From: Dehalococcoidia bacterium
Lineage (GTDB): Bacteria; Chloroflexota; Dehalococcoidia; SHYB01
Direction of reading: 5' to 3'
Assembly: GCA_034421515.1 (NCBI GenBank)
Contig: DAOUKH010000003.1
Location: 29,691-93,690 of the forward strand
DNA length: 64,000 nucleotides
This document shows positions 2,990 through 60,766 of the stretch, one piece after another (position 1 is the stretch's first letter; each line of letters starts with the position of its first letter). A program made the translations under genes and the position numbers. The notes beneath the pieces were generated by a model that had not been told where the DNA came from, did not search any database, and saw only the letters and a program-made list of their open reading frames with translations.

Positions 2990-4684
2990 CTACCCCGCCG
3001 CCGACTCGACGCGGCGGGAGACGGGGGCGCCTTGCTCGTGGTTGTTCACGAAGCCGCGCGACTGGTTCTTTTCGGGGTCGCCGGCGAGCATGAGGCCGAT
3101 CCACTCCGGCTTGGAGAAGACGGGGACGAGCCGGTCGGGGTCGGCCGACTCGACGTAGGCGGGCGGCGCGGACCCCGACGCAGCGAGCGCGGGCAGGTCG
3201 AAGTCGTAGGTCGAGGCGCGGCGGGCGTACTCCTGCAGCCGCCGCGCGGGTATCTTCGACCGCTCGTAGAGGAACGCGCGCACGTCGTCCTTGGACATGC
3301 CGTCGCGCGCGATCACCGACGCCGTCGCCGGGCTCATCGCAAGCAGCGGACACCAGCGCCCAAAGATGGCGGCGTTGAACGACCAGTACTCGTTCTCCAT
3401 CCCGAAGACGTCGGCGAGCATGCCCAACAGGTCTTCGGCGCGGTCGCCGATCGTGTAGATCGGGGGGCTGATGCTGACCACGCTCTGCACGGTGACGACG
3501 CTCTCATTGGGCGCGAAGCCCCGGTCCATGGCAAACGTGGGCCAGCCGATCTCGCGAGCGGCGGGCTCGTTCTCCGCGATGGCCATGTTGAACGTCGCGC
3601 CGAAGGCCGCCTTGTCGCCGCTGCCCGGCGGCGTGCGCAGTCCGGCGACGTTGCGCATGTAGAGGCGGACGAAGCGCCCCACGCTGCTATTGGCGCGGTT
3701 GCCGACGCGCAGGACGCCCGCGCCGGAGGCGAAACCGAGGCGTTCGATCACCGGGCCGCCGACGATGACCAGCGGCTCCCACCCCGGCGTGCTGCCCGCA
3801 TCCTCGAGGCGGAACTCGGGGTCGGCGATGGCCTTGACCGCCGCGACGAGCACCGGCATGTACTCGGGGCGGCATCCCGCCATCACGCCGTTGACGGCGA
3901 CGCTCCACACCGTGGCGAGCCGGTTGTCGGGCGGCAGCGTGCCGAGCGGTTCGTCGGCGTCGCGCGGCGTGCGGCGGAGGAACTCCTCGACCCGGTCAAC
4001 CGTCGGCGGGACGATGGGGAGCCCGTCGGTCCAGAGGAGGGAGTCAAAGCGTTCCTGCACCGCGTCGAGCGGGCCGTGAAAGACGATGTCGCGCGGCGCG
4101 GGTTCGGACTCCTCGCCTGCCAGACCCAGCGGCTTCGAAAAGGCCTCGGTCAAATCATCGGCGAGCGCGAGCACCTTGCCGCGGAACGCCTCCGGCGAGT
4201 CAGTAGCGATGACGCCGGGGTACTCGACGTGCGGCAGCGCTTCGACGCCCAGACCGCGGGCCACGGCGGCGGCTTGGCCCTTGAACGCCGTGGCAAGGAC
4301 GGAGACCGAGGGCACGCCGGCGCGCTCCGCTTCGACGCTGGCCCGCACCACGGCGGGGGTGCAGCTCCCTCAGGAGCCGACCGCCGCGACGACGGCATCC
4401 ACCCCCAGTTCGCGGAGCGCGTCGGGGATGCCCGCCATCACCTCGCGCTCGTCGGCGCCGTGGATGTTGCCAAAGGTGTCCCAGTCGACGAAGCGCGCGC
4501 CCGGCGCCCGCTCGGCGAGGACTTCCTTCATCAGCTCGAACATGCGGTCGCCCTTGAACAGGCCGTTCCACAGGAAGCCGATGGTCTTGCCGTTCAGGCC
4601 GTTCGGCCGGGGCGCGGGACGCAGCGCGCGGCGCGCCCGGGGCGCCAGCGGCCAGACGACCTCGTACGCCGGTTCGTTCGGCAT
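2990..4684 (-). CDS. UGSC-family selenoprotein fused to a conserved partner domain; in-frame UGA (Sec) at 4370-4372
   Basis: ORFs 4370..4684 and 2990..4351 share one frame and are separated only by TGA. Read-through gives ...AVVAAVGS-U-GSCTPAVV..., the U-G-S-C motif. A hairpin follows the UGA. The C-terminal ~400 aa matches paralogs at 59070-60152 and 62675-63718 (DGLPIVPPT, AVNGVMAGC). Confidence 0.7.
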
Positions 4685-37852: not shown

Positions 37853-38170
37853 TTGAAGTACCGTACCGTCATCACTTCACGGGCTGGAGAGGGCCTTCGC
37901 GGTGTCAGAGACCTTCGTGAGCAACGCAGAGTCTACCGGCGGGCGCTGGACCTGGAGGCCGAGCCACTCAAACAGGGGAAGCCACTCACGGGCGGTCTCC
38001 TAGGGTACCGGAGCATTCGTGCAGGGCAGCGTCATCGCATCCTCTACACCGTCGACGAAGGGGAGCGCGCAGTCGTCGTCGTATTGATCGGGACACGAAA
38101 GGAGGGCGACAAGGGAGATGTGTACAGAATCGCGGAACGGCTCTCCAGGCTGGGCCTTCTATCACCTTGA
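37853..38170 (+). CDS. RelE/ParE-family toxin
   Basis: ...YRSIRAGQRHRILYTVDEGERAVVVVLIGTRKEGDKGDVY C-terminal RelE signature. Confidence 0.7.
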   Translation: MKYRTVITSRAGEGLRGVRDLREQRRVYRRALDLEAEPLKQGKPLTGGLLGYRSIRAGQRHRILYTVDEGERAVVVVLIGTRKEGDKGDVYRIAERLSRLGLLSP

Positions 38171-38251
38171 ATCGTGTCGTTACCTACCCACTAGTCTCGG
38201 GTGACATGATTGGTCACCGCCCTCGAATGGGCACACGAAAAGGGAAACAAC

Positions 38252-38548
38252 ATGACAACAGATCAACTAAACAGGAAGACGGAGCGGGTCAGCATAACGA
38301 ACGCCAGGAACTCCCTGACCAAGCTGCCGGAGAAGCTTGAGCAAGACCCCGCAATCATCGAAGTGACGCGGCAGAACATCCCGGTCCTCGCCATCCTCAA
38401 TTGGGACGACTGGGAGGCGATTGTAGAGACGCTCGAGATACTGGCCGACCCGGAAGCGATGGAGCAGCTTCGTCAGTCCATCGCCGACATCGAAGCCGGC
38501 CGCGTCCAGGACCTGCGGGAGTTGGGCAAGGAGCTTGGACTCGATTAG
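38252..38548 (+). CDS. Phd/YefM-family antitoxin
   Basis: ...ITNARNSLTKL...EVTRQNIPVLAILNWDDWEAIVETLEILADPEAMEQLRQS; located downstream of the toxin. Confidence 0.7.
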   Translation: MTTDQLNRKTERVSITNARNSLTKLPEKLEQDPAIIEVTRQNIPVLAILNWDDWEAIVETLEILADPEAMEQLRQSIADIEAGRVQDLRELGKELGLD

Positions 38549-38553
38549 CCCGA

Positions 38554-39735
38554 CTACCCCCCGCCGAGGTAGTCGAGCGCCGTCGCCGCAAGGAGATGCG
38601 CCGCGGCGGGCAACACCGACTCGTCGAAGTCGAAGGCGGCGTTGTGGTGGCCTTGGGTGAGGCCGCGCGCCTCGTTGCGCGACCCCATCATGACGTAGCA
38701 GCCGGGGACGCGGTCGAGAAAGAAGGCCATGTCGTCGCCGAGCGCCGCCTGCTCGACGGAGGCGATGCTCTCGGGCCCGAGCTCGCGGGCGGCGACGCCG
38801 CGCACCAGCTCGGTCATCGCCTCGTCGTTGACCACGGGCGGCGCGAGGTACTCCGAGGTGAACTCGTAGTCGGCCCGCGCGGCAAGGCAGACGCCGCGCA
38901 CCACGTCCTCGGCGCGCTCGACGAGCGCGTCGCGCTGCGCGTGGTCGAACGTCCGCAGCGTCCCCTGCAACACCGCCTCGCCGGGAATGACGTTCCACGT
39001 CGTCCCCGCCTGGAGCGACGTGACGCTCAGGACGACGGGGCTCCCGAGGCGCGACTCGCGGCTCACCAGCGTCTGCAGAGCCAGCACGACCTGGGATGCC
39101 GCCGGGATGGGGTCGATGGTCTGATGCGGCGTCGCGGCATGGCCGCCCCGCCCCACGATCTTGATCCGCAGCCGGTCCACCGAGGCCCAGATCGGCCCCG
39201 CGCGCAGCCCGACGGCGCCGGCAGGTAAAAAATTCCACAGATGGAAGGCGAAGATGGCGTCCACCGGCGGGTCGGCGAGGACGCCGTCCTCGATCATCGC
39301 GGGGGCGCCGGCCGCCATCTCCTCCGCGGGCTGGAAGATGAACTTGACGTTCCCCGCCAGGTCGCCGCGCCGTTGGGCGAGCATCTCGGCCGCGGCAAGG
39401 ACCGCCGCGGTGTGGCCGTCGTGGCCTCAGGCATGCATCGCGCCGGCGTTGACCGACCGGTAGTCGACGTCGTTCGCCTCCTCGATGGGGAGGGCGTCGA
39501 TGTCGGCGCGGAGGGCGACGGTCTTGCCCGGCCGCGCGCCGCGCAGCAGCCCGACGACGCCGGTCTGCCCCACGCCGGTGCGCACGTCGAGGCCCAGCGC
39601 TTCGAGCCGCTCGGCGATGATCCCGGCGGTGCGCGTCTCCTTGAAGGCGAGCTCGGGGTGCGCGTGGAGGTCGCGGCGGAGGGCCACGATCTGCGGCGCG
39701 AGTGCGGCGGCCTCGTCGGCGAGGTTGGTAGCCAT
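38554..39735 (-). CDS. M20D-family amidohydrolase (hippurate/aminoacylase-like) with in-frame UGA (candidate Sec) at 39427-39429
   Basis: ORFs 39427..39735 and 38554..39384 share one frame. Joined translation reads ...RSVNAGAMHA-U-GHDGHTAAVLAAAEML...; the UGA sits at the metal-ligand Cys of the M20D MHACGHDxH motif. The rest of the protein is intact. Confidence 0.65.
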
Positions 39736-39865
39736 GAGCGGTCCTTTCCGGGGTGAGAAAGCGGCGGGCGCGGGCCGGAAAAACGCCCCTACTATGATAG
39801 AGTTAGAGCCCGGTTAGGCAAGCCGGAACGGGCCGCCGTCACAGCCGCGAAGACTTGGAGGAAAC

Positions 39866-41124: not shown

Positions 41125-41409
41125 TTGGTGGTGGATCGGTTCCGAGATAGAGATGCACAGCGCCTCTTCGGCGGGCAAGGCGTTCGACGATTACCGGCCG
41201 ACATCCAACGCCGCGCTCGCATGCGGTTGCAACGTGTGGTAGCGGCTACAGCGCTCGCCGACCTTCGCCTGCCGCCGTCCCACCGGTTGGAGGCCCTTCG
41301 GGGAGATCGGGCAGGGCAACACAGCATCCGCATCAATGACCAGTGGCGCGTGTGCTTTGTCTGGACGGACCGGGGCGCAATGGAGATCGAAGTCACCGAC
41401 TACCACTGA
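41125..41409 (+). CDS. higB: HigB-like RelE/ParE-family toxin (killer protein)
   Basis: ...HSIRINDQWRVCFVWTDRGAMEIEVTDYH C-terminus typical of HigB; TTG/GTG start. Confidence 0.7.
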   Translation: MVVDRFRDRDAQRLFGGQGVRRLPADIQRRARMRLQRVVAATALADLRLPPSHRLEALRGDRAGQHSIRINDQWRVCFVWTDRGAMEIEVTDYH

Positions 41410-41421
41410 GGAGGAAAGCCT

Positions 41422-41718
41422 ATGGCCGACGCGGAACCCATCCATCCAGGAGAACATCTGGCGGAGATGTTGCAAGAGCTGGGCATCACCCAATACCGCC
41501 TTGCGAAGACGATCGGCGTGCCCCAGATCCGCATTCACGACATCGTCCACTGCCGCAGGTCGATCACTGCGGACACCGCGCTTCGGATCGGCCAAGCACT
41601 GGGAATGACGCCCGACTACTGGCTGAACCTCCAGCGGATGTACGACCTCGACGTGGCCCGCACCAAGACCGACGTCAGCGCCATCGAACCGCTCGTCGAG
41701 GCGTCCACCGTCCCCTAG
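41422..41718 (+). CDS. higA: HigA-family antitoxin (XRE helix-turn-helix)
   Basis: IHPGEHLAEMLQELGITQYRLAKTIGVPQIRIHDIVHCRRSITADTALRIGQALGMTPDYWLNLQ. Confidence 0.75.
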   Translation: MADAEPIHPGEHLAEMLQELGITQYRLAKTIGVPQIRIHDIVHCRRSITADTALRIGQALGMTPDYWLNLQRMYDLDVARTKTDVSAIEPLVEASTVP

Positions 41719-48122: not shown

Positions 48123-48243
48123 TTCCGACCTCCTCGCCTGGGCCTAGCGTAATCTGAGGGCGGACGCGTCCGGCGGCCGCCCGGCCCACCTTACCTTATA
48201 TCATGTTCGCGCGTAACGTGCTCGCCGTGTGGAAGTCGAGAAG

Positions 48244-48325
48244 TGGGGAAGAGGAGACTCGAACTCCTACGCCTTTCGGCACATGATCCTAAATCATGCT
48301 CGTCTGCCAATTCCGACACTTCCCC
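48244..48325 (-). tRNA. tRNA-Leu (UAG)
   Basis: Minus strand: GGGGAAG...anticodon loop uuUAGga...long variable arm...CTTCCCC-A; no encoded CCA. Confidence 0.8.
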
Positions 48326-48362
48326 ATCGCGGGCCCCGGCCCAGCGTCCGAGCCTGGCGCGA

Positions 48363-48438
48363 TGGTGAGCCGCACAGGACTCGAACCTGTAACCTACTGA
48401 TTAAGAGTCAGTTGCTCTACCAATTGAGCTAGCGGCCC
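48363..48438 (-). tRNA. tRNA-Lys (CUU)
   Basis: Minus strand: GGGCCGCTAGCTCAATTGGTAGAGCAACTGACTCTTAATCAGTAGGTTACAGGTTCGAGTCCTGTGCGGCTCACCA. Confidence 0.85.
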
Positions 48439-48845: not shown

Positions 48846-48884
48846 GGGTCGCCTGGGGTGTCGGCGAACTGAGGCAGTGACAGC

Positions 48885-50426
48885 GTGAACAGCGCCTTTT
48901 CTCAGCGATGCCAGGCGGCGCTCACCCATCCGGTGACGCTGGCCGCAATCGCAGTGCTGGTGGTGAACGACCTGGCGCTGAAGGCGCTGTGGCCGTCGCC
49001 TTGGACGACGGGCAAGCTGAGCGACCTGGCGTGGGTCGTCTTCGCATCGCCCTTGCTGGCCTTCCTGCTGTCGTTGGCTACACCCAGGAATGCTTACGCG
49101 GAGCGGGCGGTCTTCGCGGCCGCCTACATAGGGCTCCCGCTCCTGTACGCCGCGTTCAACACCCTGGAACCGGTGCATGACTGGATCTCGAGCGGGCTGG
49201 GGCTGCTGGCGGGGAGGCCGACCGGAGGGACGCCGGACCCGACCGACTCGCTGGTCATTCCCCTAGGCTTGGCGGCGGCCCTCTGGGTCTGGCGCCGCGG
49301 CGCCGCCAATCAGAGCGACGTACGCCAGCGGCTCGTCTTGCTCACTGCCGGCTTCGCCGCGTTCGCGTCGGTGGCGAGCGGCCCACCTCCTCATGAGCTT
49401 GGGGTCGTAGACGTGGGCGTGGGAGAAGACGGTGTCCTCATCGCGCGCAGTGTGGACGGTCACGAGGGCCTCGTAGAACCGGAGGGTGGCCAGCACTACA
49501 TGAGCACCGACGGCGGTTCCTCATGGGGCGATGGGGAATGGGTCGACCGAGAGATAGCGGGGGCTATCGCGTGGGGCGGGCAGACCGCGGAAACTCCGCG
49601 AGGGACCTATTCCGTCAATACGACGGGTATCGCCCTGACTAGCGATGGCACGTCGGAAACCGTCTATTCCACGGAGTTCCTGGGAGACCCTGCCAACCGG
49701 TTGCAGCATGAAGTAGCCACCAAACGATTTAGTGAGCGGATGCTAAGGTTTTCCCCGCGAAGCATCGTCTATCACGAAGCAAGCGGCAACGTGATAGCGA
49801 CCTTGGGGCTCCAGGGCGTGGTTGTGGGTGACGCCGACGAGGTCTGGCAGAGGATAGCGGTGGGGCGCTACTCGCCGACGGACTTTTCGGCGAGCGGCAA
49901 GCTGCGGACCATCTTTTCCCGCGCCGCGTTCTGGTTCACCGGACTCGCGGTCGCCGCCTCCTTGACGGCGTCGGCATTGGCATTGGCGCGCGTGGCGCCG
50001 AACTGGGCGCTGGGAAGAATCCTCTTCGCCATCGCCGCCGCCACAGCAGCCATTGTCGCCTTGCTTCTCCTCTTCTCCACCGAGACCAGCACGCCGATCG
50101 GCGAGGGGGTCCTCAGGGAACCGGACATCCTGTTCACTTTTGGAGCGGTGATGATGTTGCTCTTCTCGCTGTGGTCGGCGCTGGCCGTCGCGGCGTCGAT
50201 CTTGCCGCGGCGACAGTATCTTCTCGCGGCGTTCGTCGCTCTGCTGGCGATGATGGCGCTCTTTGCGGTGTCCTTCTTGATTGCCATCGCGCAGGAGGTG
50301 CGTACCGCCAAATTGTTCGCCTTACTCCTTGTCTTCCTGGCCGCGGTCTCGTTCTACGTCTACCTTCGGAGGAAGCTGTCGGAGGAGCAACCGGCCTTGC
50401 CGGAGGGAGGGCCGCCCAGAGGGTGA
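48885..50426 (+). CDS. hypothetical polytopic membrane protein
   Basis: 513 aa; several TM helices at both ends and a central soluble region; lies between the tRNA-Lys and the terminase module. Confidence 0.45.
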   Translation: MNSAFSQRCQAALTHPVTLAAIAVLVVNDLALKALWPSPWTTGKLSDLAWVVFASPLLAFLLSLATPRNAYAERAVFAAAYIGLPLLYAAFNTLEPVHDWISSGLGLLAGRPTGGTPDPTDSLVIPLGLAAALWVWRRGAANQSDVRQRLVLLTAGFAAFASVASGPPPHELGVVDVGVGEDGVLIARSVDGHEGLVEPEGGQHYMSTDGGSSWGDGEWVDREIAGAIAWGGQTAETPRGTYSVNTTGIALTSDGTSETVYSTEFLGDPANRLQHEVATKRFSERMLRFSPRSIVYHEASGNVIATLGLQGVVVGDADEVWQRIAVGRYSPTDFSASGKLRTIFSRAAFWFTGLAVAASLTASALALARVAPNWALGRILFAIAAATAAIVALLLLFSTETSTPIGEGVLREPDILFTFGAVMMLLFSLWSALAVAASILPRRQYLLAAFVALLAMMALFAVSFLIAIAQEVRTAKLFALLLVFLAAVSFYVYLRRKLSEEQPALPEGGPPRG

Positions 50427-50499
50427 GGCGCGACCTTGCCGCCTTCGGCCCCGTTGGCCTTGCTTCGCCCCAAAATGGATTTTCGGCCGAAATGAGCTA

Positions 50500-50550
50500 T
50501 TGACAGCCTTGTCAAGGGGGTTTATCGTTAGAGTACAGAACGTACGTTCT
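50500..50550 (+). promoter_or_regulatory. sigma70-like promoter (TTGACA-N18-TATCGT) overlapped by a Cheo-type LexA box AGAACGTACGTTCT
   Basis: TTGACAgcctTGTCAA at 50500-50515; -10 candidates TATCGT (50524-29) or TAGAGT (50529-34); perfect 14-bp palindrome AGAACGTACGTTCT at 50537-50550 matches the Gram-positive/actinobacterial SOS box GAAC-N4-GTTC. Confidence 0.45.
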
Positions 50551-50593
50551 CTAGCGGGGCGGCCCAAAACGGCCCTCCGCGCACCCGCCGAAG

Positions 50594-50630
50594 ACCCGCT
50601 CCCCGCGAGCGGGTCTCGCGGTTTAAGGGG
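50594..50630 (+). terminator. GC-rich hairpin followed by a T-tract; candidate intrinsic terminator for the 48885..50426 gene
   Basis: GACCCGCTCG-CCC-CGAGCGGGTC stem followed by tcgcggttt. Confidence 0.3.
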
Positions 50631-50636
50631 CCTGCG

Positions 50637-50712
50637 GGTCGTGAGCTTCGTGAGCGTTCGTACAGGTAGGGCGTCGTGAGCGTCGTGAGCGCCATGAGCG
50701 TTCGTGAGCGCT
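50637..50712 (+). repeat. array of six CGTGAGCG-like direct repeats at roughly 9-10 bp spacing (iteron-like)
   Basis: cgtgagct/cgtgagcg/cgtgagcg/cgtgagcg/catgagcg/cgtgagcg between the promoter and the terminase small-subunit RBS. Confidence 0.4.
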
Positions 50713-50755
50713 TTTGACATGCGCGCGCCGCGAAGGCGCGGGAGGAGGGAGTCGA

Positions 50756-51565
50756 ATGGCAAGGGGTAAGAAGGGGCCGGCGCGGACGTCGAGGCGGCGG
50801 CGAGAGATGGAGGAACGGCAGCGGGTGTTTCTGGACGCGTTGCGGCGGACCGGGGATGCGGAGGCGGCAAGGGCGTCGATCGATGTCGGCGAGTCGACAG
50901 TGCGGCGATGGAGGGGGAAGGACGATGTGTTCCGAGCCGCGTACAAGGAGGCGCAGGGAGCCAAGGGGGCGGCTCCGGAGGGGCGGCCGAAATTCACGGG
51001 GCGGAAGCGGGTGTTCCTGGATGCATTCGAGCGGGCGGGGGTAGTAGCGGCGGCGCTGCGCGCGGCGGAGGCGACGGCGAAGGATCTGCGTCGATGGGTG
51101 CGGGATGACGCGGAGTTTCTGGACTCATACGTGGAGGCAAGGGGGCGCATCCGGGCGCGGGCCGACGAGGAGACGGAGCGACGGATCGCGGCAGGGGAGC
51201 AGGTCTCGGCAGCAGGGCGGAAGCGGGTCTTCTTGAAGCATCTGGCGAGCGTGGGCACGACGACGGGAGGCTGCGAGGCAGCGGGGATCACCTTGAAGAC
51301 GCTGAAGGAGTGGCTGGAGAGGGATGAGTTCGCGGAGGCGTTCGCGGAGGCGAAGCAGCGTTTCCGGGACCACATCGAGGAAGCGATCGTGCAGCGGATC
51401 GATGAAGGGAAGAACGGAGGGCTGCTCCAATTCAAGGCGCGGGCGGAGCTTCCTGAAAAGTACGGGAAGGGGGAAAAGACCCCGCCGAAGGAGCAGGCCG
51501 GCGTGACCTGGGAGGATATCGAGCGGGCAGCGAGGGAGCCATATGACGCGACAGGAGCGTGTTAA
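50756..51565 (+). CDS. phage terminase small subunit-like protein (three HTH-like repeats)
   Basis: GGAGGAGGGA RBS upstream; three copies of R(Q/K)RVFLDAL-x-GxxxxAxxxxxVxxxTxxRWRxxDxxFxxAYxEA, the motif of small-terminase DNA-binding domains. Confidence 0.55.
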   Translation: MARGKKGPARTSRRRREMEERQRVFLDALRRTGDAEAARASIDVGESTVRRWRGKDDVFRAAYKEAQGAKGAAPEGRPKFTGRKRVFLDAFERAGVVAAALRAAEATAKDLRRWVRDDAEFLDSYVEARGRIRARADEETERRIAAGEQVSAAGRKRVFLKHLASVGTTTGGCEAAGITLKTLKEWLERDEFAEAFAEAKQRFRDHIEEAIVQRIDEGKNGGLLQFKARAELPEKYGKGEKTPPKEQAGVTWEDIERAAREPYDATGAC

Positions 51566-52931
51566 GTTTGAGCGGCGGTGTCAAGACGACCCCGCGTTCT
51601 TCTTTCGGCACGTGCTCGGCTGGACGCCGTGGGCGAAGCAGGCGGAGATCGCGCGGGCGGTGGCGGAAGCGGTGCGCGGCGCGGGCCCGCGGCGGGTGGC
51701 GGTGCGGAGCGGGAACGGCGTGGGGAAGACGGCACTGGCGGCGCGGCTGATGCTGTGGGCGCTGCAGAGCCACCCCTCGAGCGTGGTGGTGACGACGGCG
51801 CCGACGCAGCGTCAGGTGACGGAGCTGCTGTGGCGGGAGGCGCGGTCGGCGTACTACCGGGCGCGGGTGCCACTGGGCGGGGTCTTCTACGAGGGGCAGC
51901 CGCGGTGGGACTTCGGGCCGCGGCGGTACGCGATCGGGGTGAGCCCGGAGCACACCCGGCCGGAGGCGTTCCAGGGCTTCCACGCCGACCTGATCGTGTT
52001 CCTGGTCGACGAGGCAAGCGGGGTGCCGGCGGCGCACTGGGAGGCGATCAAGGGGTCGCTGCTGGCGGGGAACGCGGCAGTGCTGGCGATCGGGAACCCG
52101 ACGCGGCTGGAGGGGGAGTTCTACGACGCCTTCCACGGCCAGGCTGCCCTGTGGCGGCGGCTGCACATCTCGGCGTTCGACACGCCGAACCTGACGGGCG
52201 GCGACGTGCCGGGCCTGGTGACACCGGCGGCGGTGGCCGAGGCGGCGCGGGACTGGGGCGAGGAGAGTCCGCTCTATCAGATCCGGGTGCTGGGCGAATT
52301 TCCCTCGGCGGCGAGCCATCAGCTCATCCGCTTCGAGTGGACCGAGCAGGCGGCGGAGGCCCCGTCGGCGGGCGGCGGCTTCGCCCTCGGCGTCGACGTG
52401 GCGCGGAGCGGCGAGGACGAGACGGCGGCGGTGCTGCTGGAAGGCAACCGCCTGGCGCGCCTGCAGCGCTGGCTGGGACAGAACACGATGCGGACCGTCG
52501 CCGAGATCAAGGGCCTCGTAGACGAGCTCGGCGAGGTGGCGGTCGCGGTGGACGACGGCGGGGTCGGCGGCGGCGTGGTCGACCGGCTGCGGGAGCTGGA
52601 CGTGCGGGTCTACGCGGTGAAGTTCGGGGCGGCGGCGGATGGGCGGTCGTCGGTGCATTTCAAGAACAAGCTCGCCGAGATGTACTGGCGGCTGCGCGAG
52701 CGCCTGGAGGCTGGGACGCTGCGGCTGCCGCAGGAAGCGTCGTTGACGGGAGGCGGCAAGCTCGCGGCGCAACTGGCGCAGATCGAGTGGGAAGTCGAGA
52801 GCGACCGGGTGATCCGGGTCCACAAGCGGGGTCTGTCGGGCCACGCGCCGAGCCCGGACATCGCGGACGCGCTCGCCTTGGCGCTGGAGGCGCAGGCGCG
52901 GTCGGAGCGCGGCGCGGGCGTGTGGTTTTAG
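51543..52931 (+). CDS. phage terminase large subunit
   Basis: Walker A GNGVGKT, Walker B LVFLVDEAS; C-terminal RNase-H-like nuclease region with acidic residues; overlaps the small-subunit gene. Confidence 0.8.
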   Translation: MTRQERVKFERRCQDDPAFFFRHVLGWTPWAKQAEIARAVAEAVRGAGPRRVAVRSGNGVGKTALAARLMLWALQSHPSSVVVTTAPTQRQVTELLWREARSAYYRARVPLGGVFYEGQPRWDFGPRRYAIGVSPEHTRPEAFQGFHADLIVFLVDEASGVPAAHWEAIKGSLLAGNAAVLAIGNPTRLEGEFYDAFHGQAALWRRLHISAFDTPNLTGGDVPGLVTPAAVAEAARDWGEESPLYQIRVLGEFPSAASHQLIRFEWTEQAAEAPSAGGGFALGVDVARSGEDETAAVLLEGNRLARLQRWLGQNTMRTVAEIKGLVDELGEVAVAVDDGGVGGGVVDRLRELDVRVYAVKFGAAADGRSSVHFKNKLAEMYWRLRERLEAGTLRLPQEASLTGGGKLAAQLAQIEWEVESDRVIRVHKRGLSGHAPSPDIADALALALEAQARSERGAGVWF

Positions 52932-53020: not shown

Positions 53021-53968
53021 CTAGAGGCGGGCGAGGACTTGGTTGGCGAAGGCGTGGAGGTTGCGGAGGTGGTCGTCGGGGGTGGTCCAGGTGAAGTTGA
53101 CGCCGAGGTTGGTGAAGCCGGCCTCGGCGTAGCGGTGGACGAGCTCGCGGACGGCCTCCGGGGTGCCTTCCGGGCCCTGCGCGGCGGGGCGTTCTCCGGC
53201 CTGCCTGCCGGTGACGTGGGACCGGGCGACGAGGGAGAGGGGGTCGGGCTCGCCGAAGAAGACCTCGTAGGCGAAGTCGAGGGCGTCGGCGTCGCGGCCG
53301 CGGGCCGTCACCGCCGCCTTGATACGGGCGACGTCGCCGGCGAGGCCCGGCAGCTCGCCAACCATGGGGATCCAGCCGTCGCCGAACTCCGCGACGCGGC
53401 GTTCCGCAGCCGGGCCGCTACCGCCGATCCAGAGCGGGACGTGCGGCTGCTGATAGCACTTGGGCTCAAAGGCGATGCTGCCGAAGCGGGTGTACTTGCC
53501 CTCAAACGACGGGGCGTCGCTGGTCCAAAGCTCGCGCATCGCCGCCAGGTATTCGTCGGTGACCGTGCCGCGCTCGGCGTGGGTCAGGCCGAGGACGCGG
53601 AACTCGCCGCGCATCCAGCCGACGCCCGTCCCCACGATCAGGCGGCCCTTGGAGACCTGGTCGAGCGTCGCGATCAGCTTCGCCGTCTGCACCGGCGGAC
53701 GGTACGGGGTCACCATGACGCTGAAAACGATTCGGATGCGTTCCGTCAGGGTCGCGAGGTGCGCGCCGAGCACGAAGTTGTCGTACCAGACGGTGCTCAC
53801 CGAGGGGGCGTCGGGGCGCACCGGCATGATGATGTGCTCAGGGAGGCGGACGCCCCAGAAGCCAAGCTCCTCCGCGGCCCGCACCGACCGCGCCAGCGGC
53901 TCGATGCCGCCCCAGCGGTCGTAGGGGAAGACGGGCATGGTGAAGTTGACGGCCTTTGCCTGGGGCAT
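53021..53968 (-). CDS. LLM-class F420-dependent / flavin-dependent oxidoreductase
   Basis: 315 aa; luciferase-like monooxygenase TIM-barrel pattern (GFWGVRLPEH..., LWIGGSG). Confidence 0.7.
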   Translation of the reverse strand: MPQAKAVNFTMPVFPYDRWGGIEPLARSVRAAEELGFWGVRLPEHIIMPVRPDAPSVSTVWYDNFVLGAHLATLTERIRIVFSVMVTPYRPPVQTAKLIATLDQVSKGRLIVGTGVGWMRGEFRVLGLTHAERGTVTDEYLAAMRELWTSDAPSFEGKYTRFGSIAFEPKCYQQPHVPLWIGGSGPAAERRVAEFGDGWIPMVGELPGLAGDVARIKAAVTARGRDADALDFAYEVFFGEPDPLSLVARSHVTGRQAGERPAAQGPEGTPEAVRELVHRYAEAGFTNLGVNFTWTTPDDHLRNLHAFANQVLARL

Positions 53969-54045
53969 GGCTGCTCCGCCCTCTCTCAGTCTCTCCCAGG
54001 GGGAGAGAGGCGTAAGGTGGCTTCTCCCAGAGAGAGAGGTTTAAG
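53969..54045. repeat. palindromic intergenic repeat unit (degenerate)
   Basis: ccctctctcagtctctcccagggggagagaggcgtaagg...ctcccagagagagaggtttaagg. Confidence 0.5.
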
Positions 54046-54460
54046 GCGAGGGGCGCTCGGCGATCGCTTGCTTGATGAAGTCGGCGATTTCGTGGGTGGG
54101 GCTGCCGGGGCCGAAGATGCCGGTGACGCCCATATCGCGGAGGCGGTCGTAGTCGTCCTCGGGGATGATGCCGCCGGCGACGATCAGGGCGTCGTCCTTG
54201 CCCTGGGCTTTCAGGCCGTCGACGATGAGGGGGAAGAGCTCGAGGTGCGCGCCCGAGAGGATGCTGAGGCCGACGACGTCGACGTCCTCCTGGACCGCCG
54301 CCTCGACGATCATCTCCGGGGTCTGCCGGATGCCGGTGTAGATGACCTCCATGCCGGCGTCGCGGAGGGCGCGGGCGATGACCTTCGCGCCTCGGTCGTG
54401 GCCGTCGAGGCCGGGCTTCGCCACCAGCACGCGAATCGTATCCTTCGGCGCGCTCACCAT
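54041..54460 (-). CDS. methylmalonyl-CoA mutase small subunit (cobalamin-binding domain)
   Basis: 139 aa; B12-binding DxHxxG motif ([10 protein letters not shown]) and Rossmann-like layout. Confidence 0.85.
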
Positions 54461-54493
54461 CGTCTCACCTCCGGCGTCCGCCCCCGCCGACGC

Positions 54494-54907
54494 TTACTCG
54501 CCCTCCTCGACCGGCGTGCAGAGCTCGGTCAGCACGCCCCTCGTGGCCTTGGGGTGCAGAAAGCCGACCATGCCGGCGAGCCCCGGGCGCGAGGTCTTGT
54601 CGATGAGCCGGACGCCCCTGCGGTCCAGGTCCGCGAGCTCGGCGTCGACGTCGTGGACCTCGAAGCAGATATGGTGCAGCGACTCGCCGCGCCGCTCGAG
54701 GAACTTGGCCACGCCGCCCTCGGGGTCGGTCGGCTCGATGAGCTCGATCTCGGCGTCGCCGACGGGGATCAGCGTCGCCTTCACCTGCTGCGACTCGACG
54801 AAGACGACCTCGGTGCGGGGCAGCCCCAGCACGTCGGCGTAGTCGCCGAGCGCCTCCTCGATGTCGTGCACCGCGAGGGCGATGTGATGCAGCTTCTTCA
54901 AGTTCAT
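54494..54907 (-). CDS. mce: methylmalonyl-CoA epimerase (VOC family)
   Basis: 137 aa; HHIALAVHDIEEAL...HHICFEVHDVDAEL paired VOC motifs; adjacent to the mutase B12 subunit. Confidence 0.75.
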   Translation of the reverse strand: MNLKKLHHIALAVHDIEEALGDYADVLGLPRTEVVFVESQQVKATLIPVGDAEIELIEPTDPEGGVAKFLERRGESLHHICFEVHDVDAELADLDRRGVRLIDKTSRPGLAGMVGFLHPKATRGVLTELCTPVEEGE

Positions 54908-55006
54908 AGCGCGTCCAGCCTCTGCTCCGAGAAATGCGGGCGCTATTGTACGACACCGCGCCGAAGGCTGCCCGCGCCGCGCCGGACGGGGCGCGGCGCG
55001 GGTGGG

Positions 55007-55807
55007 TCAGAGTCCTTGGAGGGCGGCGGTGCTGAAGACGACAGAGAAGGGTTTGCAGTAGATGACGACGCTGTTGAAGGCCGAGACGTCGACGCCCGCC
55101 GGGACCGTGTAGTTCTGGTTCCCCCGGTTGCCCTTGAGTCTGCCGAGGTCGAGGTACTCGCCCTGCTTCACCTCGTCCGGCCTCGCCGGGTCGGCGTGGG
55201 AGGACAAGATCACGTGGAGCGCCGGCCCGTTCGTGACCGAGAAGTTCTCCAGGCGGAGCAGGTGGCCGCCGCCGGGCGCGGTGTAGATGATGGCCTGACC
55301 GCTGCCGCGGTGGAAGCTGTCGGCGTCCTTGAAGTCGCCCTGCTTCAGCCGCTGGACTTCGCCCTCGGAGTCGGCGGCGGCTTTCATTGCGCCCATCGCG
55401 TCGCCGGCGGCGAGCATCGACCCGGCGTCCATGGCCGCTGCTTCGGGCAGCGCCTCCCGCATCAGCGGGTCGTCGACCATGGCCATGCCGGCCATCACGC
55501 CCTCGACGTCGGCCATCTCCATGCCCTCGGGCAGCACGGCGTTGACGGCGAAGGGGAACTCCTCCTCGACCGTGACGTTGATGAACAGCGGCGATCCAAG
55601 CGACCAGCCGAGCCAGAGCGTAAGGGCCAAGATCGGGACCGAAGCGATTCCGAAGGCCACGCGGTGGCGCAGGATGACCTGGTGCCAGCCCTGCCGATAG
55701 CCGTAGGCGAGGAGGGCGGCGATAAAGGCGATGGTGAGGCCGCCGATGAGCCAGCGGTACTCATAGAGGTTGGCGAGTGCACGTTCGACGTCACCGATGG
55801 TGGACAT
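55007..55807 (-). CDS. DM13-domain protein with N-terminal TM anchor
   Basis: C-terminal GSGQAIIYTAPGGGHLLRLENFSVTNGPALHVILS...NSVVIYCKPFSVVF matches DM13. Confidence 0.55.
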   Translation of the reverse strand: MSTIGDVERALANLYEYRWLIGGLTIAFIAALLAYGYRQGWHQVILRHRVAFGIASVPILALTLWLGWSLGSPLFINVTVEEEFPFAVNAVLPEGMEMADVEGVMAGMAMVDDPLMREALPEAAAMDAGSMLAAGDAMGAMKAAADSEGEVQRLKQGDFKDADSFHRGSGQAIIYTAPGGGHLLRLENFSVTNGPALHVILSSHADPARPDEVKQGEYLDLGRLKGNRGNQNYTVPAGVDVSAFNSVVIYCKPFSVVFSTAALQGL

Positions 55808-55951
55808 GACATTCCTCCGGCGTCCGCTGCCGTTCGTGTTGCGTTCATAGGGTAATACGAAGGCGGGCCGCCGGGCGGCTCCAATGGGCGGCTAGCCGCC
55901 GTCGTCGAGCATCGGGTAGGCTGTTTCGGACGTGGAGAAGGCAGGCGACGC

Positions 55952-59075: not shown

Positions 59076-60152
59076 GGGGGCGGGCCTGATCGGGCGGCTG
59101 GTGGCCCAGCCGCCCATGTAGCCCCAGGACTGGATGCAGGCGCAGAAGCCGGCCTGGAGTCCGCCGGCCACGGTGATGAGCAGGTCTTCGGGCTTGCGCA
59201 GCACGGCGAGCATCGTGGTGTCGTCGAGGTCGTCGGGGGTTGCAGGCCAGACGTCCTCGGGCGCGCCGGCGTCCCACTGGATGCGACCGCGGTCAAGCAT
59301 GGTCTTCAGCGATACGAGGGCCCGCTCGTGGACGTGCTCCCCGATGGCCTGCTTCGACCAGCCGGCGTCGTAGAGCGGCTGGGCGACAAGGGGATTGAGC
59401 ACGAAGAAGACCTGCCCTCCGCGGCGGATGGTGTGCCAGCAGACCCGCACTTGCTCGATCATATCGAGCAAGGAGGCGTCGGGTTCGCGCGAGCCGCCGT
59501 ACTGGACGGGGCTGTCGCAGCCGATGACGGTGACGCCGCCGGCGCTGTCCACGCCGAAGTCGGCATGGAGCGGACCCCAGGGCGCGTCGGGCGACTCGCC
59601 GATGCAGTAGACGTACTTGCCGGGCGAGCCGAGGACGGACTTGTCACCCGTCTCCGGGTAGCCGCCGCCGAGCACCATCATCACGAGGCGCAGCGCCCGC
59701 CCGATCGTGGCGTTGGCGCGGTAGCCGGGCCCGAAGGCGCTGGTGCCGTAGTTGATTTCGAGGTCGTCGACGACCGGGCCGCTGACGATCACCAGCGGCC
59801 CCGCGGGGTGCGTCGTGGCCTGGAGCCCGTTGAGGTTGAAGCGCTCGTCGAGGGCGGCCTCGACGGCGGCCAGCACCACGGGGAAGTAGTCGGGACGGCA
59901 GCCCGCCATCACGGCGTTGGCGGCGACGGTCTCGATGGTGGCCACTCCCATGCGCGGCGGCACCGGCCCGAGGACCTCTTGAGGGTCGCGCCCGCTGCCC
60001 TCGACCATGCGCTCGATGAGGTCGGGGGTCGGTGGGATGATGGGCAGGCCGTCGGTCCAGCCCTTGCGGTAGAACTCCTCGATGGTCTCGATGCAGGAGT
60101 CCCAGCTATCGGCCGCGGTGAAGGTGGACGCCGCTTCGCCGGACTGGGTCAT
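59070..60152 (-). CDS. UGSC-associated conserved partner protein (paralog 2), separate gene
   Basis: MTQSGEAASTF...WTDGLPIIPPT...AANAVMAGCRPDYFPVVLAAVEA...; its ATG overlaps the UGSC gene stop as ATGA. Paralog of the C-terminal domain of 2990..4684 and of 62675..63718. Confidence 0.6.
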   Translation of the reverse strand: MTQSGEAASTFTAADSWDSCIETIEEFYRKGWTDGLPIIPPTPDLIERMVEGSGRDPQEVLGPVPPRMGVATIETVAANAVMAGCRPDYFPVVLAAVEAALDERFNLNGLQATTHPAGPLVIVSGPVVDDLEINYGTSAFGPGYRANATIGRALRLVMMVLGGGYPETGDKSVLGSPGKYVYCIGESPDAPWGPLHADFGVDSAGGVTVIGCDSPVQYGGSREPDASLLDMIEQVRVCWHTIRRGGQVFFVLNPLVAQPLYDAGWSKQAIGEHVHERALVSLKTMLDRGRIQWDAGAPEDVWPATPDDLDDTTMLAVLRKPEDLLITVAGGLQAGFCACIQSWGYMGGWATSRPIRPAPA

Positions 60153-60766
60153 GGCCGGTTTGCGGCTCGCGCGGCCGTTGGGGGCTCGGCGGATTTCGGG
60201 GTCAGCGTCCCTTCCATCAGCCATCGGACTACGCCGGGGTAGGCCGCTTCGCCCTGGGCCCGGTTGGCCTCGGCGTCGCCGAGATAGCCGGGGAGGATGA
60301 CGGGCTCGAATTCCTCGCAGCGCAGGTGGCGCCGCTTCATGAACGCCAACTGGCGGAAGACGTCGAGGATGACGACGGCGGCGGGGATGCCGTCGGTCTC
60401 GAAGGTGATCCCGTCGTGCATACAGCACGACGTGCAGGAGCCTCAGGCCCCGACGCCGATCACCATGGAGTCGACCTGCGCCTTCAGCTCCTCGTACATG
60501 TCCGGCGGGACCCGGGCCGAGAGGTTGGGCTTGCGTTTGAGGATTACTTGGTCGACGCCGTTATGTTCCTGTAGGAGCTCGCCGATGCGCTCAAGGACGA
60601 TGTGGCTGTCTTGGACGCCGTCGTCGAGCAGGCCGACGGTCTTCCCCCGGAGGGTGTCCACACGTCTGGCGAGGGAGGTTGGCTCGCGCCAGACGTGGCC
60701 GGACGGGTCGACGACGGTGATTTCTCGGTTCACGGTCTGCGCCATGGCGTTAGCCGTGCGGGTCAT
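60149..60766 (-). CDS. UGSC-family selenoprotein (stand-alone); in-frame UGA (Sec) at 60443-60445
   Basis: ORFs 60443..60802 and 60149..60421 are in one frame, separated only by TGA: ...MVIGVGA-U-GSCTSCCMHDG.... A perfect 8-bp stem hairpin (CGUCGUGC-UGUAU-GCACGACG) starts 10 nt after the UGA. Start set at ATG 60766, which overlaps the upstream hicB-like stop. Confidence 0.7.

Follow-up and report, generated by a model that had tools for sequence, protein, structure and literature searches.

A UGA codon at the metal-bridging cysteine position of an M20D amidohydrolase gene: a candidate selenocysteine metallohydrolase in Dehalococcoidia and other bacteria

Does an in-frame UGA end the product of a Dehalococcoidia amidohydrolase gene after 102 residues, or is it read as selenocysteine (Sec)? 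The question is raised by a minus-strand M20D peptidase-family gene in a 64,000-nucleotide stretch of contig DAOUKH010000003.1 (hereafter the window, meaning the whole stretch that was analyzed). An earlier inspection of this DNA made without database searches (the sequence-only reading) had seen two open reading frames (ORFs) in one frame, separated only by TGA, and had proposed that Sec takes the place of a metal-binding Cys. We confirmed the observation, and our comparisons support the interpretation. On the strength of sequence conservation, the UGA is very probably decoded as Sec in a functional full-length M20D enzyme.

The UGA codon and the metal site

Read on the minus strand, the gene comprises 102 sense codons, the TGA at 39429-39427, and another 290 sense codons that end at a TAG (38556-38554). 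It keeps a single frame and, besides the TGA, holds neither a stop nor a frameshift, which is the layout first described. Around the UGA the joined protein reads NAGAMHA, the recoded position, and then GHDGHTAAVLAAAEMLAQ. In phmmer alignments to YxeP (1ysj, E 7e-88), ILL2 (1xmb), 4ewt, and CsAga (6slf), the TGA coincides with the Cys of the MHACGHD motif, exactly where the sequence-only reading had put it. That reading had also suggested looking for Cys in the closest homologues. Cys occupies the position in 116 of the 117 full-length close homologues with a readable motif, the lone exception being an off-target match of the regular expression, and it fills the same column in all 199 of the Cys-form homologues that were aligned.

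For the family searches, Cys was placed at codon 103 of the query. The protein matched Pfam PF01546 (Peptidase_M20, E 2.3e-42) over residues 74-387 and PF07687 (M20_dimer, the inserted lid domain, E 4.1e-13) over residues 189-280, and it scored 380.1 bits against the NCBIfam model TIGR01891 "amidohydrolase," for which the cutoff is 153.75. Domain architecture, curated score, and metal-site residues all correspond to M20D (MEROPS M20D / TIGR01891), with the UGA at the Cys position. Judged by its sequence, the protein is an M20D metal-dependent amidohydrolase of the aminoacylase or carboxypeptidase type. The score for the CpsA equivalog NF040868 was 397.9 bits, which is under the cutoff of 500, and therefore no substrate was assigned. 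It also falls outside YgeY (NF009555), for which its 29.5 bits compare with a cutoff of 321.

The residues expected around the metals are conserved in Sec and Cys forms alike (Table 1). Among them is His105, assigned as a metal ligand as in the M20D family. In CsAga (6SLF) the motif Cys bridges two co-catalytic zinc ions (PMC11511702), and the MHACGHD of that structure aligns with MHA-U-GHD of the window protein. Because it is homologous to the CsAga Cys, Sec103 would be expected to bridge the binuclear center. The earlier description of this Cys as an active-site metal ligand can be kept, with the refinement that in CsAga it bridges both co-catalytic metal ions. If the codon is decoded as proposed, Sec at the Cys position would be a conservative chalcogen replacement.

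The TGA form in close and distant relatives

The nearest proteins were sought in a collection of 5.8 billion sequences. The two nearest clusters, at 98% and 94% identity, consist of 276-aa C-terminal fragments and hold 48 and 22 distinct sequences, respectively. The 30 cluster members listed among the 62 that we read were mostly 276-277 aa long, with four shorter fragments, and none of the 62 carried a public name. After these two fragment clusters, the next matches were full-length Cys forms at 61% identity. The closest genome record is OZ220083.1, a Dehalococcoidia metagenome-assembled genome (MAG) in which the M20D protein shares 97.5% identity with that of the window. The same pair of 102-aa and 276-aa ORFs is present on the syntenic contigs L001 (ENA) and L002 (JGI). 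When their DNA was aligned with the window, the TGA was present in all three sequences, there were zero indels, and the differences fell mostly in third positions. The Shine-Dalgarno-like sequence and the start codon are kept in both.

We then asked how selection acts on either side of the TGA, using Nei-Gojobori estimates of the ratio of nonsynonymous to synonymous substitution rates (dN/dS). Within the window clade, whole-gene dN/dS was 0.07-0.13 at dS 0.23-0.35, with values of 0.10-0.23 upstream of the TGA and 0.065-0.098 downstream. A real stop would free the downstream 290 codons from constraint, and the low dN/dS past the TGA shows that they have not been freed. Within other Sec clades dN/dS was mostly 0.07-0.30 on both sides of the UGA, with a maximum of 0.47 in one N-terminal segment. 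The claim that the gene does not reflect random decay was borne out, given an intact frame and purifying selection on both sides of the TGA.

To survey more distant relatives, one genome per species (185,579 species) was scanned for the degenerate 27-nt pattern ATGCAYGCNTGAGGNCAYGAYNNNCAY, which encodes MHA-TGA-GHDxH. The pattern was present in 40 species genomes from at least seven phyla, when by our estimate about one chance match is expected. About 18 of these genomes are Dehalococcoidia, about 10 are Planctomycetota, and 6 are Methylomirabilota; single or few matches came from Armatimonadota, Candidatus Fervidifonticultor, Poribacteria, Deltaproteobacteria, Bacteroidia, and Clostridia. The GC content of the 40 genomes ranges from 41% to 75%. 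A further TGA form (L048) came from a metagenome. There is no second stop or frameshift in 37 of the 40 (a few end with the fetched DNA). Apart from three loci discussed below (L006, L018, and L008), wherever the fetched DNA extends to the end of the gene, the frame is open for 100 codons or more before the TGA and for 278-300 codons after it. Outside the window clade, the TGA-form proteins are 30-69% identical to the window protein, the most divergent being L009 (Bacteroidia, GC 41%) at 37% and L033 (Clostridia) at 30%. The sequence-only reading had named relatives with TGC only, at a locus in decay, as the outcome that would speak against it. TGA orthologues were found instead, many of them, both close and very distant and in genes that are otherwise intact, and the locus in the window is undecayed.

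Sec and Cys forms are interleaved. The nearest Cys relatives of the Sec forms are as much as 83% identical (L007), followed by 76% for L028 and L030 and 73% for L013. A rough neighbor-joining tree of 44 Sec and 199 Cys sequences contains 14 maximal Sec clades, and Fitch parsimony gives 14 state changes. The Cys form nearest to the window protein (P0003, 61%) adjoins a divergently transcribed GAPDH gene, as the window gene does, and is its positional orthologue. Exchange between Cys and Sec of this kind is typical of genuine selenoprotein families.

The hairpin after the UGA, probable selenium use, and the genomic setting

If the UGA is a Sec codon, a bacterial selenocysteine insertion sequence (bSECIS) should follow it. 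The published bSECIS model has an apical loop of 3-9 nt, a stem of 4-16 bp, and a G in the first two loop positions (PMC13188914). The same model sets the spacing from the UGA at 16-37 nt and the minimum free energy at -7.5 kcal/mol or lower (PMC13188914). The window hairpin, CCGCGGCG-GUCCU-UGCCGCGG, lies inside these limits: its 5-nt loop begins with GU, its stem has 8 bp, the loop starts 24 nt from the UGA, and the predicted energy is -14.4 kcal/mol. With the closing G.U pair left open, it can also be read as 7 bp around the 7-nt loop GGUCCUU. Two GC-rich hairpins had been pointed out in this region by the sequence-only reading. One of them, CGCGGC-GGUCCUU-GCCGCG (39409-39391), is this element and is conserved. 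The other, GGCC-ACGAC-GGCC (39426-39414), is present in the window but broken in most close relatives by a GGC to GGG change, and we did not retain it.

Across the Sec forms the hairpin falls into two classes, described here with the U of UGA numbered as 1. In class A, positions 20-27 pair with 33-40 around a 5-nt loop that is typically GGUCU and in the window GUCCU. This class unites the window clade with Methylomirabilota, Planctomycetota, Poribacteria, and the deltaproteobacterium. In its 26 sequences, 94.3% of the cells are paired, compared with 76% in column shuffles (0 of 500 reach the observed value) and 23-66% in slid registers, and compensatory double changes occur at five of the eight pairs. 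In class B, positions 18-23 pair with 28-33 around CGUG, GGUC, or a similar loop. It includes a second Dehalococcoidia clade, Armatimonadota, and Fervidifonticultor, and it has 100% of cells paired with compensatory changes at two of six pairs. The helix is kept even though the peptides that it encodes vary by clade (AAVLAA, AIGLMA, and VAVAMS). A bSECIS prediction was one of the checks first suggested for this locus, and it returned a hairpin that fits the published model and is maintained by compensatory change.

As a control we used 81 Cys-form genes of similar divergence. The full hairpin was found in 40 of 43 Sec forms (93%) but in only 6 of the 81 Cys forms (7%). A register-free scan with the published bSECIS model passed 30 of 43 Sec forms versus 7 of 81 Cys forms, and a stricter version of that scan passed 24 of 43 versus none of 81. 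An Rfam search of the window at gathering thresholds gave four tRNAs only and no SECIS family.

Use of Sec elsewhere on the contig was examined by scanning the window for TGA codons that lie between stretches of coding sequence with high GC content at third codon positions. Beside the M20D gene, the scan gave two sites, reading GA-U-GSC and GS-U-GSC, in genes whose products both match NCBIfam NF041046 "UGSC family (seleno)protein" (Table 1). Since the contig of the M20D gene also carries two UGSC genes whose TGA falls on the U of UGSC, we infer that the organism has the Sec-decoding trait, as the sequence-only reading had argued from these loci. Dehalococcoidia MAGs are among the most selenoprotein-rich bacteria in BSepDB, with 46-49 selenoprotein genes (PMC13326102). 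The longer UGSC protein carries a C-terminal extension of about 380 aa after the UGSC domain, for which there was no Pfam or NCBIfam match.

The code itself does not appear to be altered. Among 45 confident window ORFs, 31 end in TAG, 8 in TAA, and 6 in TGA; because TGA still ends 6 of the 45 genes, the recoding is site specific and the codon has not been reassigned. A preference for TAG is unusual for a genome of 68% GC, and it recurs in the loci of both Dehalococcoidia clades, whereas 18 of 19 stops in the Methylomirabilota loci are TGA. Selenoprotein-rich Dehalococcoidia may avoid TGA as a stop.

Table 1. Positions of the M20D gene, its metal-site codons and downstream hairpin, and the two UGSC genes in the window
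Feature	Position	Strand	Remarks
M20D amidohydrolase gene, complete	38554..39735	-	393 codons plus TAG; codon 103 is UGA
Start codon ATG	39735-39733	-	Read from the sequence
Shine-Dalgarno-like GGAAAGGA	39742..39749	-	6 nt upstream of the ATG
UGA codon 103, proposed Sec codon	39427..39429	-	Aligns with the metal-bridging Cys of MHACGHD
bSECIS-like hairpin CCGCGGCG-GUCCU-UGCCGCGG	39390..39410	-	8 bp including the closing G.U pair
His105 codon (GHD histidine)	39421..39423	-	Invariant in 44 Sec forms and 199 Cys forms
Glu138-Glu139 codons (QPAEE), assigned general base and metal ligand	39319..39324	-	Invariant in all Sec and Cys forms
His165 codon, assigned metal ligand	39241..39243	-	Invariant in all Sec and Cys forms
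His364 codon, assigned metal ligand	38644..38646	-	39 of 40 Sec forms with a residue there; 197 of 199 Cys forms
UGSC-family gene	60149..60766	-	In-frame TGA 60445-60443; PF24696 E 3.7e-38; hairpin loop UGUAU, 18 nt downstream
Second UGSC-domain gene	2990..4684	-	564 aa; TGA 4372-4370; PF24696 E 1e-31; hairpin loop CGUGGU, 17 nt downstream

No neighbor genes are shared across the Sec clades, and the neighborhood gives no functional clue. Within the window clade the neighbors are GAPDH, toxin-antitoxin genes, and an MFS transporter. In the window, type II toxin-antitoxin pairs flank the M20D-GAPDH pair at 37853-38170 (+) with 38210-38548 (+) and at 41125-41409 (+) with 41422-41718 (+); the pairs are of the ParE-like with Phd/YefM and the HigB with helix-turn-helix antitoxin kinds. 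Close relatives differ at these positions. On the M20D side there is a Phd/YefM antitoxin in L001 and nothing in L002; on the GAPDH side there is an NYN-domain gene in L001, and there are MMPL and methyltransferase genes in L002. Elsewhere in the window, tRNA-Leu(tag) and tRNA-Lys(ctt) at 48243-48438 (-) are followed by ORFs at 48873-52931 (+) without a family match. One of these has a weak match to a phage small terminase (PF20901, E 2.9e-06, with no stretch passing alone), and the tRNA-adjacent ORFs may be the remnant of an integrated element. At 53021-55891 (-), four ORFs run head to tail in one frame without a spacer, encoding a DM13-domain protein, a glyoxalase, a B12-binding domain, and a luciferase-like monooxygenase; the first of the four ends in TGA.

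Readings of the UGA and what a Sec bridge would mean

Decoding of the UGA as Sec would proceed by a familiar route. As other selenoprotein mRNAs of bacteria do, this one would use its hairpin (+20 to +40) to bring in SelB with its Sec-tRNA(Sec) when the ribosome reaches the UGA. Once the enzyme has folded, Sec103 would sit between the two co-catalytic metal ions in place of the bridging Cys and, with His105, Glu139, His165, and His364, would form a selenolate-bridged binuclear center that activates water for amide hydrolysis, with Glu138 acting as the general base. General selenium chemistry suggests what might be gained. Sec has a lower pKa than Cys and is a softer donor; as a fully deprotonated ligand it could shift the affinity of the site or its choice of metal. 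A Sec bridge may also resist irreversible oxidation and be reducible back after it is oxidized, which might shield the active site.

Several observations weigh against this reading. None of selA, selB, selC, or selD is present in the 64-kb window or the fetched loci; ARAGORN searches of the window and of 42 loci gave no tRNA-Sec, and Pfam annotation of about 36 window ORFs showed no selA, selB, or selD. An extra defect is carried by 3 of the 41 Sec-form loci outside the first three of the window clade: the reading frame is shifted in L006 and L018, and in L008 a TAG takes the place of the conserved Glu/Gln of DALPI-E, 18 codons before the TGA. These three are either real pseudogenes or MAG assembly errors. 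Both hairpin registers were derived from the Sec forms themselves, which cluster on the phylogeny, and the Cys control genes have a somewhat lower GC content (0.62 versus 0.68). Single-sequence folding z-scores are weak (-0.56, +0.71, and -0.75 for 65 nt; -2.06 for 45 nt), because GC-rich shuffles fold equally well. Neither L009 nor L033 has a convincing hairpin in either register or under the bSECIS model; the two may depend on another class of SECIS, or they may be nonfunctional as selenoprotein genes. The doubt that is left is mostly about which residue is inserted, along with the sel genes not seen in the window or loci.

The alternative that survives best, though an unlikely one, is that the UGA is read through to give a full-length enzyme with a residue other than Sec. 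This could occur by near-cognate suppression with Trp or Cys, or through a SelB-like factor that delivers Cys on a tRNA-Cys resembling tRNA(Sec), with UCA as its anticodon. Such tRNA-Cys (UCA) systems have been reported in some bacteria. In PMC5424206 we found no information on recoding of UGA to Cys. Conservation and hairpin evidence demonstrate recoding and not the identity of the residue, and the lack of a tRNA-Sec or sel gene in the window and fetched loci leaves room for this alternative. The recoded position, however, is always the Cys position, the classic Sec/Cys pair, and the hairpin, whose loop contains GU, conforms to the bSECIS model of the SelB type. The same contig also has two genes of a recognized selenoprotein family, UGSC, with similar hairpins, and there are Dehalococcoidia MAGs with 46-49 selenoprotein genes in BSepDB (PMC13326102). 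Finally, recoding to plain Cys offers no obvious gain over TGC, yet there are about 14 TGA clades. These points favor insertion of Sec over another residue.

Still less probable is a genuine stop, in which translation would stop after 102 aa and start anew for the C-terminal part, and the two chains would assemble into an active enzyme. Gene callers do give 102-aa and 276-aa ORFs, and both are under purifying selection. The 276-aa ORF, however, starts at Met118, so that the equivalent of Cys103 and His105 would be in neither fragment, or the center would be without its thiolate. The break falls always at the Cys codon and is always TGA, never TAA or TAG, in proteins that are 30-50% identical, and a conserved hairpin of SECIS geometry lies downstream of the codon. 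We know of no M20 enzyme that is split there.

Least credible of all is a pseudogene or a sequencing or assembly error, a nonsense change from TGC to TGA without function: although a single nucleotide separates the two codons, three distant TGA forms have additional defects, and the public annotation consists of truncated fragments, the same TGA recurs in independent assemblies (the window, the ENA contig, the JGI contig, 70 cluster members, and 40 species genomes), there are no indels, the codons past the TGA evolve at a dN/dS of about 0.1 (dS up to 0.4), frames stay intact over 30-50% protein divergence, and the catalytic residues are conserved.

Sec at codon 103 remains the reading that we prefer, and comparison with known systems indicates where it would stand. 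The Cys-containing M20D enzymes (YxeP 1YSJ, Arabidopsis ILL2 1XMB, S. aureus 4EWT, Corynebacterium CsAga 6SLF, and Sulfolobus CPSso/CpsA) share the two-domain architecture and the MHAxGHDxH, QPAEE, and His motifs, and probably the same binuclear-metal hydrolytic mechanism. Unlike them, the window gene has UGA at the bridging Cys position and a SECIS-like hairpin. Sec also replaces a metal-ligating Cys in FdhF (Mo/W) and in [NiFeSe] hydrogenase (Ni), and Cys homologues of these enzymes coexist with the Sec forms. Both of these catalyze redox reactions, and their Sec is a terminal ligand to a redox-active metal, whereas the window enzyme is a hydrolase in which Sec would bridge two Lewis-acid metal ions. 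FdhF likewise has a bSECIS hairpin just after its UGA, with G and U in the apical loop (PMC13188914, PMC13582414). The discovery logic of a Cys/Sec pair, a bSECIS, and TGA homologues is the one used for the UGSC family, MbdU, and SaoB/SaoC (reviewed in PMC13188914), and some recently catalogued selenoprotein families are suspected metal binders (PMC13188914). YgeY (NF009555) is an M20-superfamily hydrolase that is linked to selenium by gene neighborhood and does not contain Sec.

An M20, amidohydrolase, or peptidase selenoprotein is not mentioned in the 2026 review of prokaryotic selenoproteomes (PMC13188914), and searches with narrower sets of terms found no M20 selenoprotein in the BSepDB main text, the deep-Sep paper and its supplements, or the GOS and Olavius papers. 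Taken together, the full-text searches, which covered open-access papers only so that an earlier mention elsewhere is possible, found no M20 selenoprotein, and no NCBIfam selenoprotein model matches the M20D protein. PMC5658510 was considered as a prior description and set aside; its mentions of hippuricase and of a lack of selenoproteins are unconnected. The enzyme family and the mechanism of Sec insertion are each standard, and their combination is undescribed in the open-access literature that we searched. It is probable that this is the first Sec metallohydrolase, an uncatalogued and misannotated family in which a nonredox Sec bridges a binuclear (Zn, Co, Mn, or Ni) center, with about 14 gains or retentions across at least seven phyla.

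Almost all known selenoenzymes are oxidoreductases, and a Sec-bridged hydrolase, if true, would widen the known chemical uses of selenium. The roughly 14 gains or retentions would then imply a recurrent advantage of a selenolate over a thiolate bridge, for example in metal selectivity or affinity under metal scarcity or in resistance to oxidative inactivation, and the Cys forms, which are up to 83% identical, are a natural experiment on why Sec replaces Cys. Because these genes are called as two fragments (at least 70 sequences in the window clade), selenoproteome counts and metabolic annotation are incomplete, which touches Dehalococcoidia, Planctomycetota, Methylomirabilota, and other uncultured groups. 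The conserved hairpins add well-supported examples of bSECIS elements from phyla without experimentally characterized ones.

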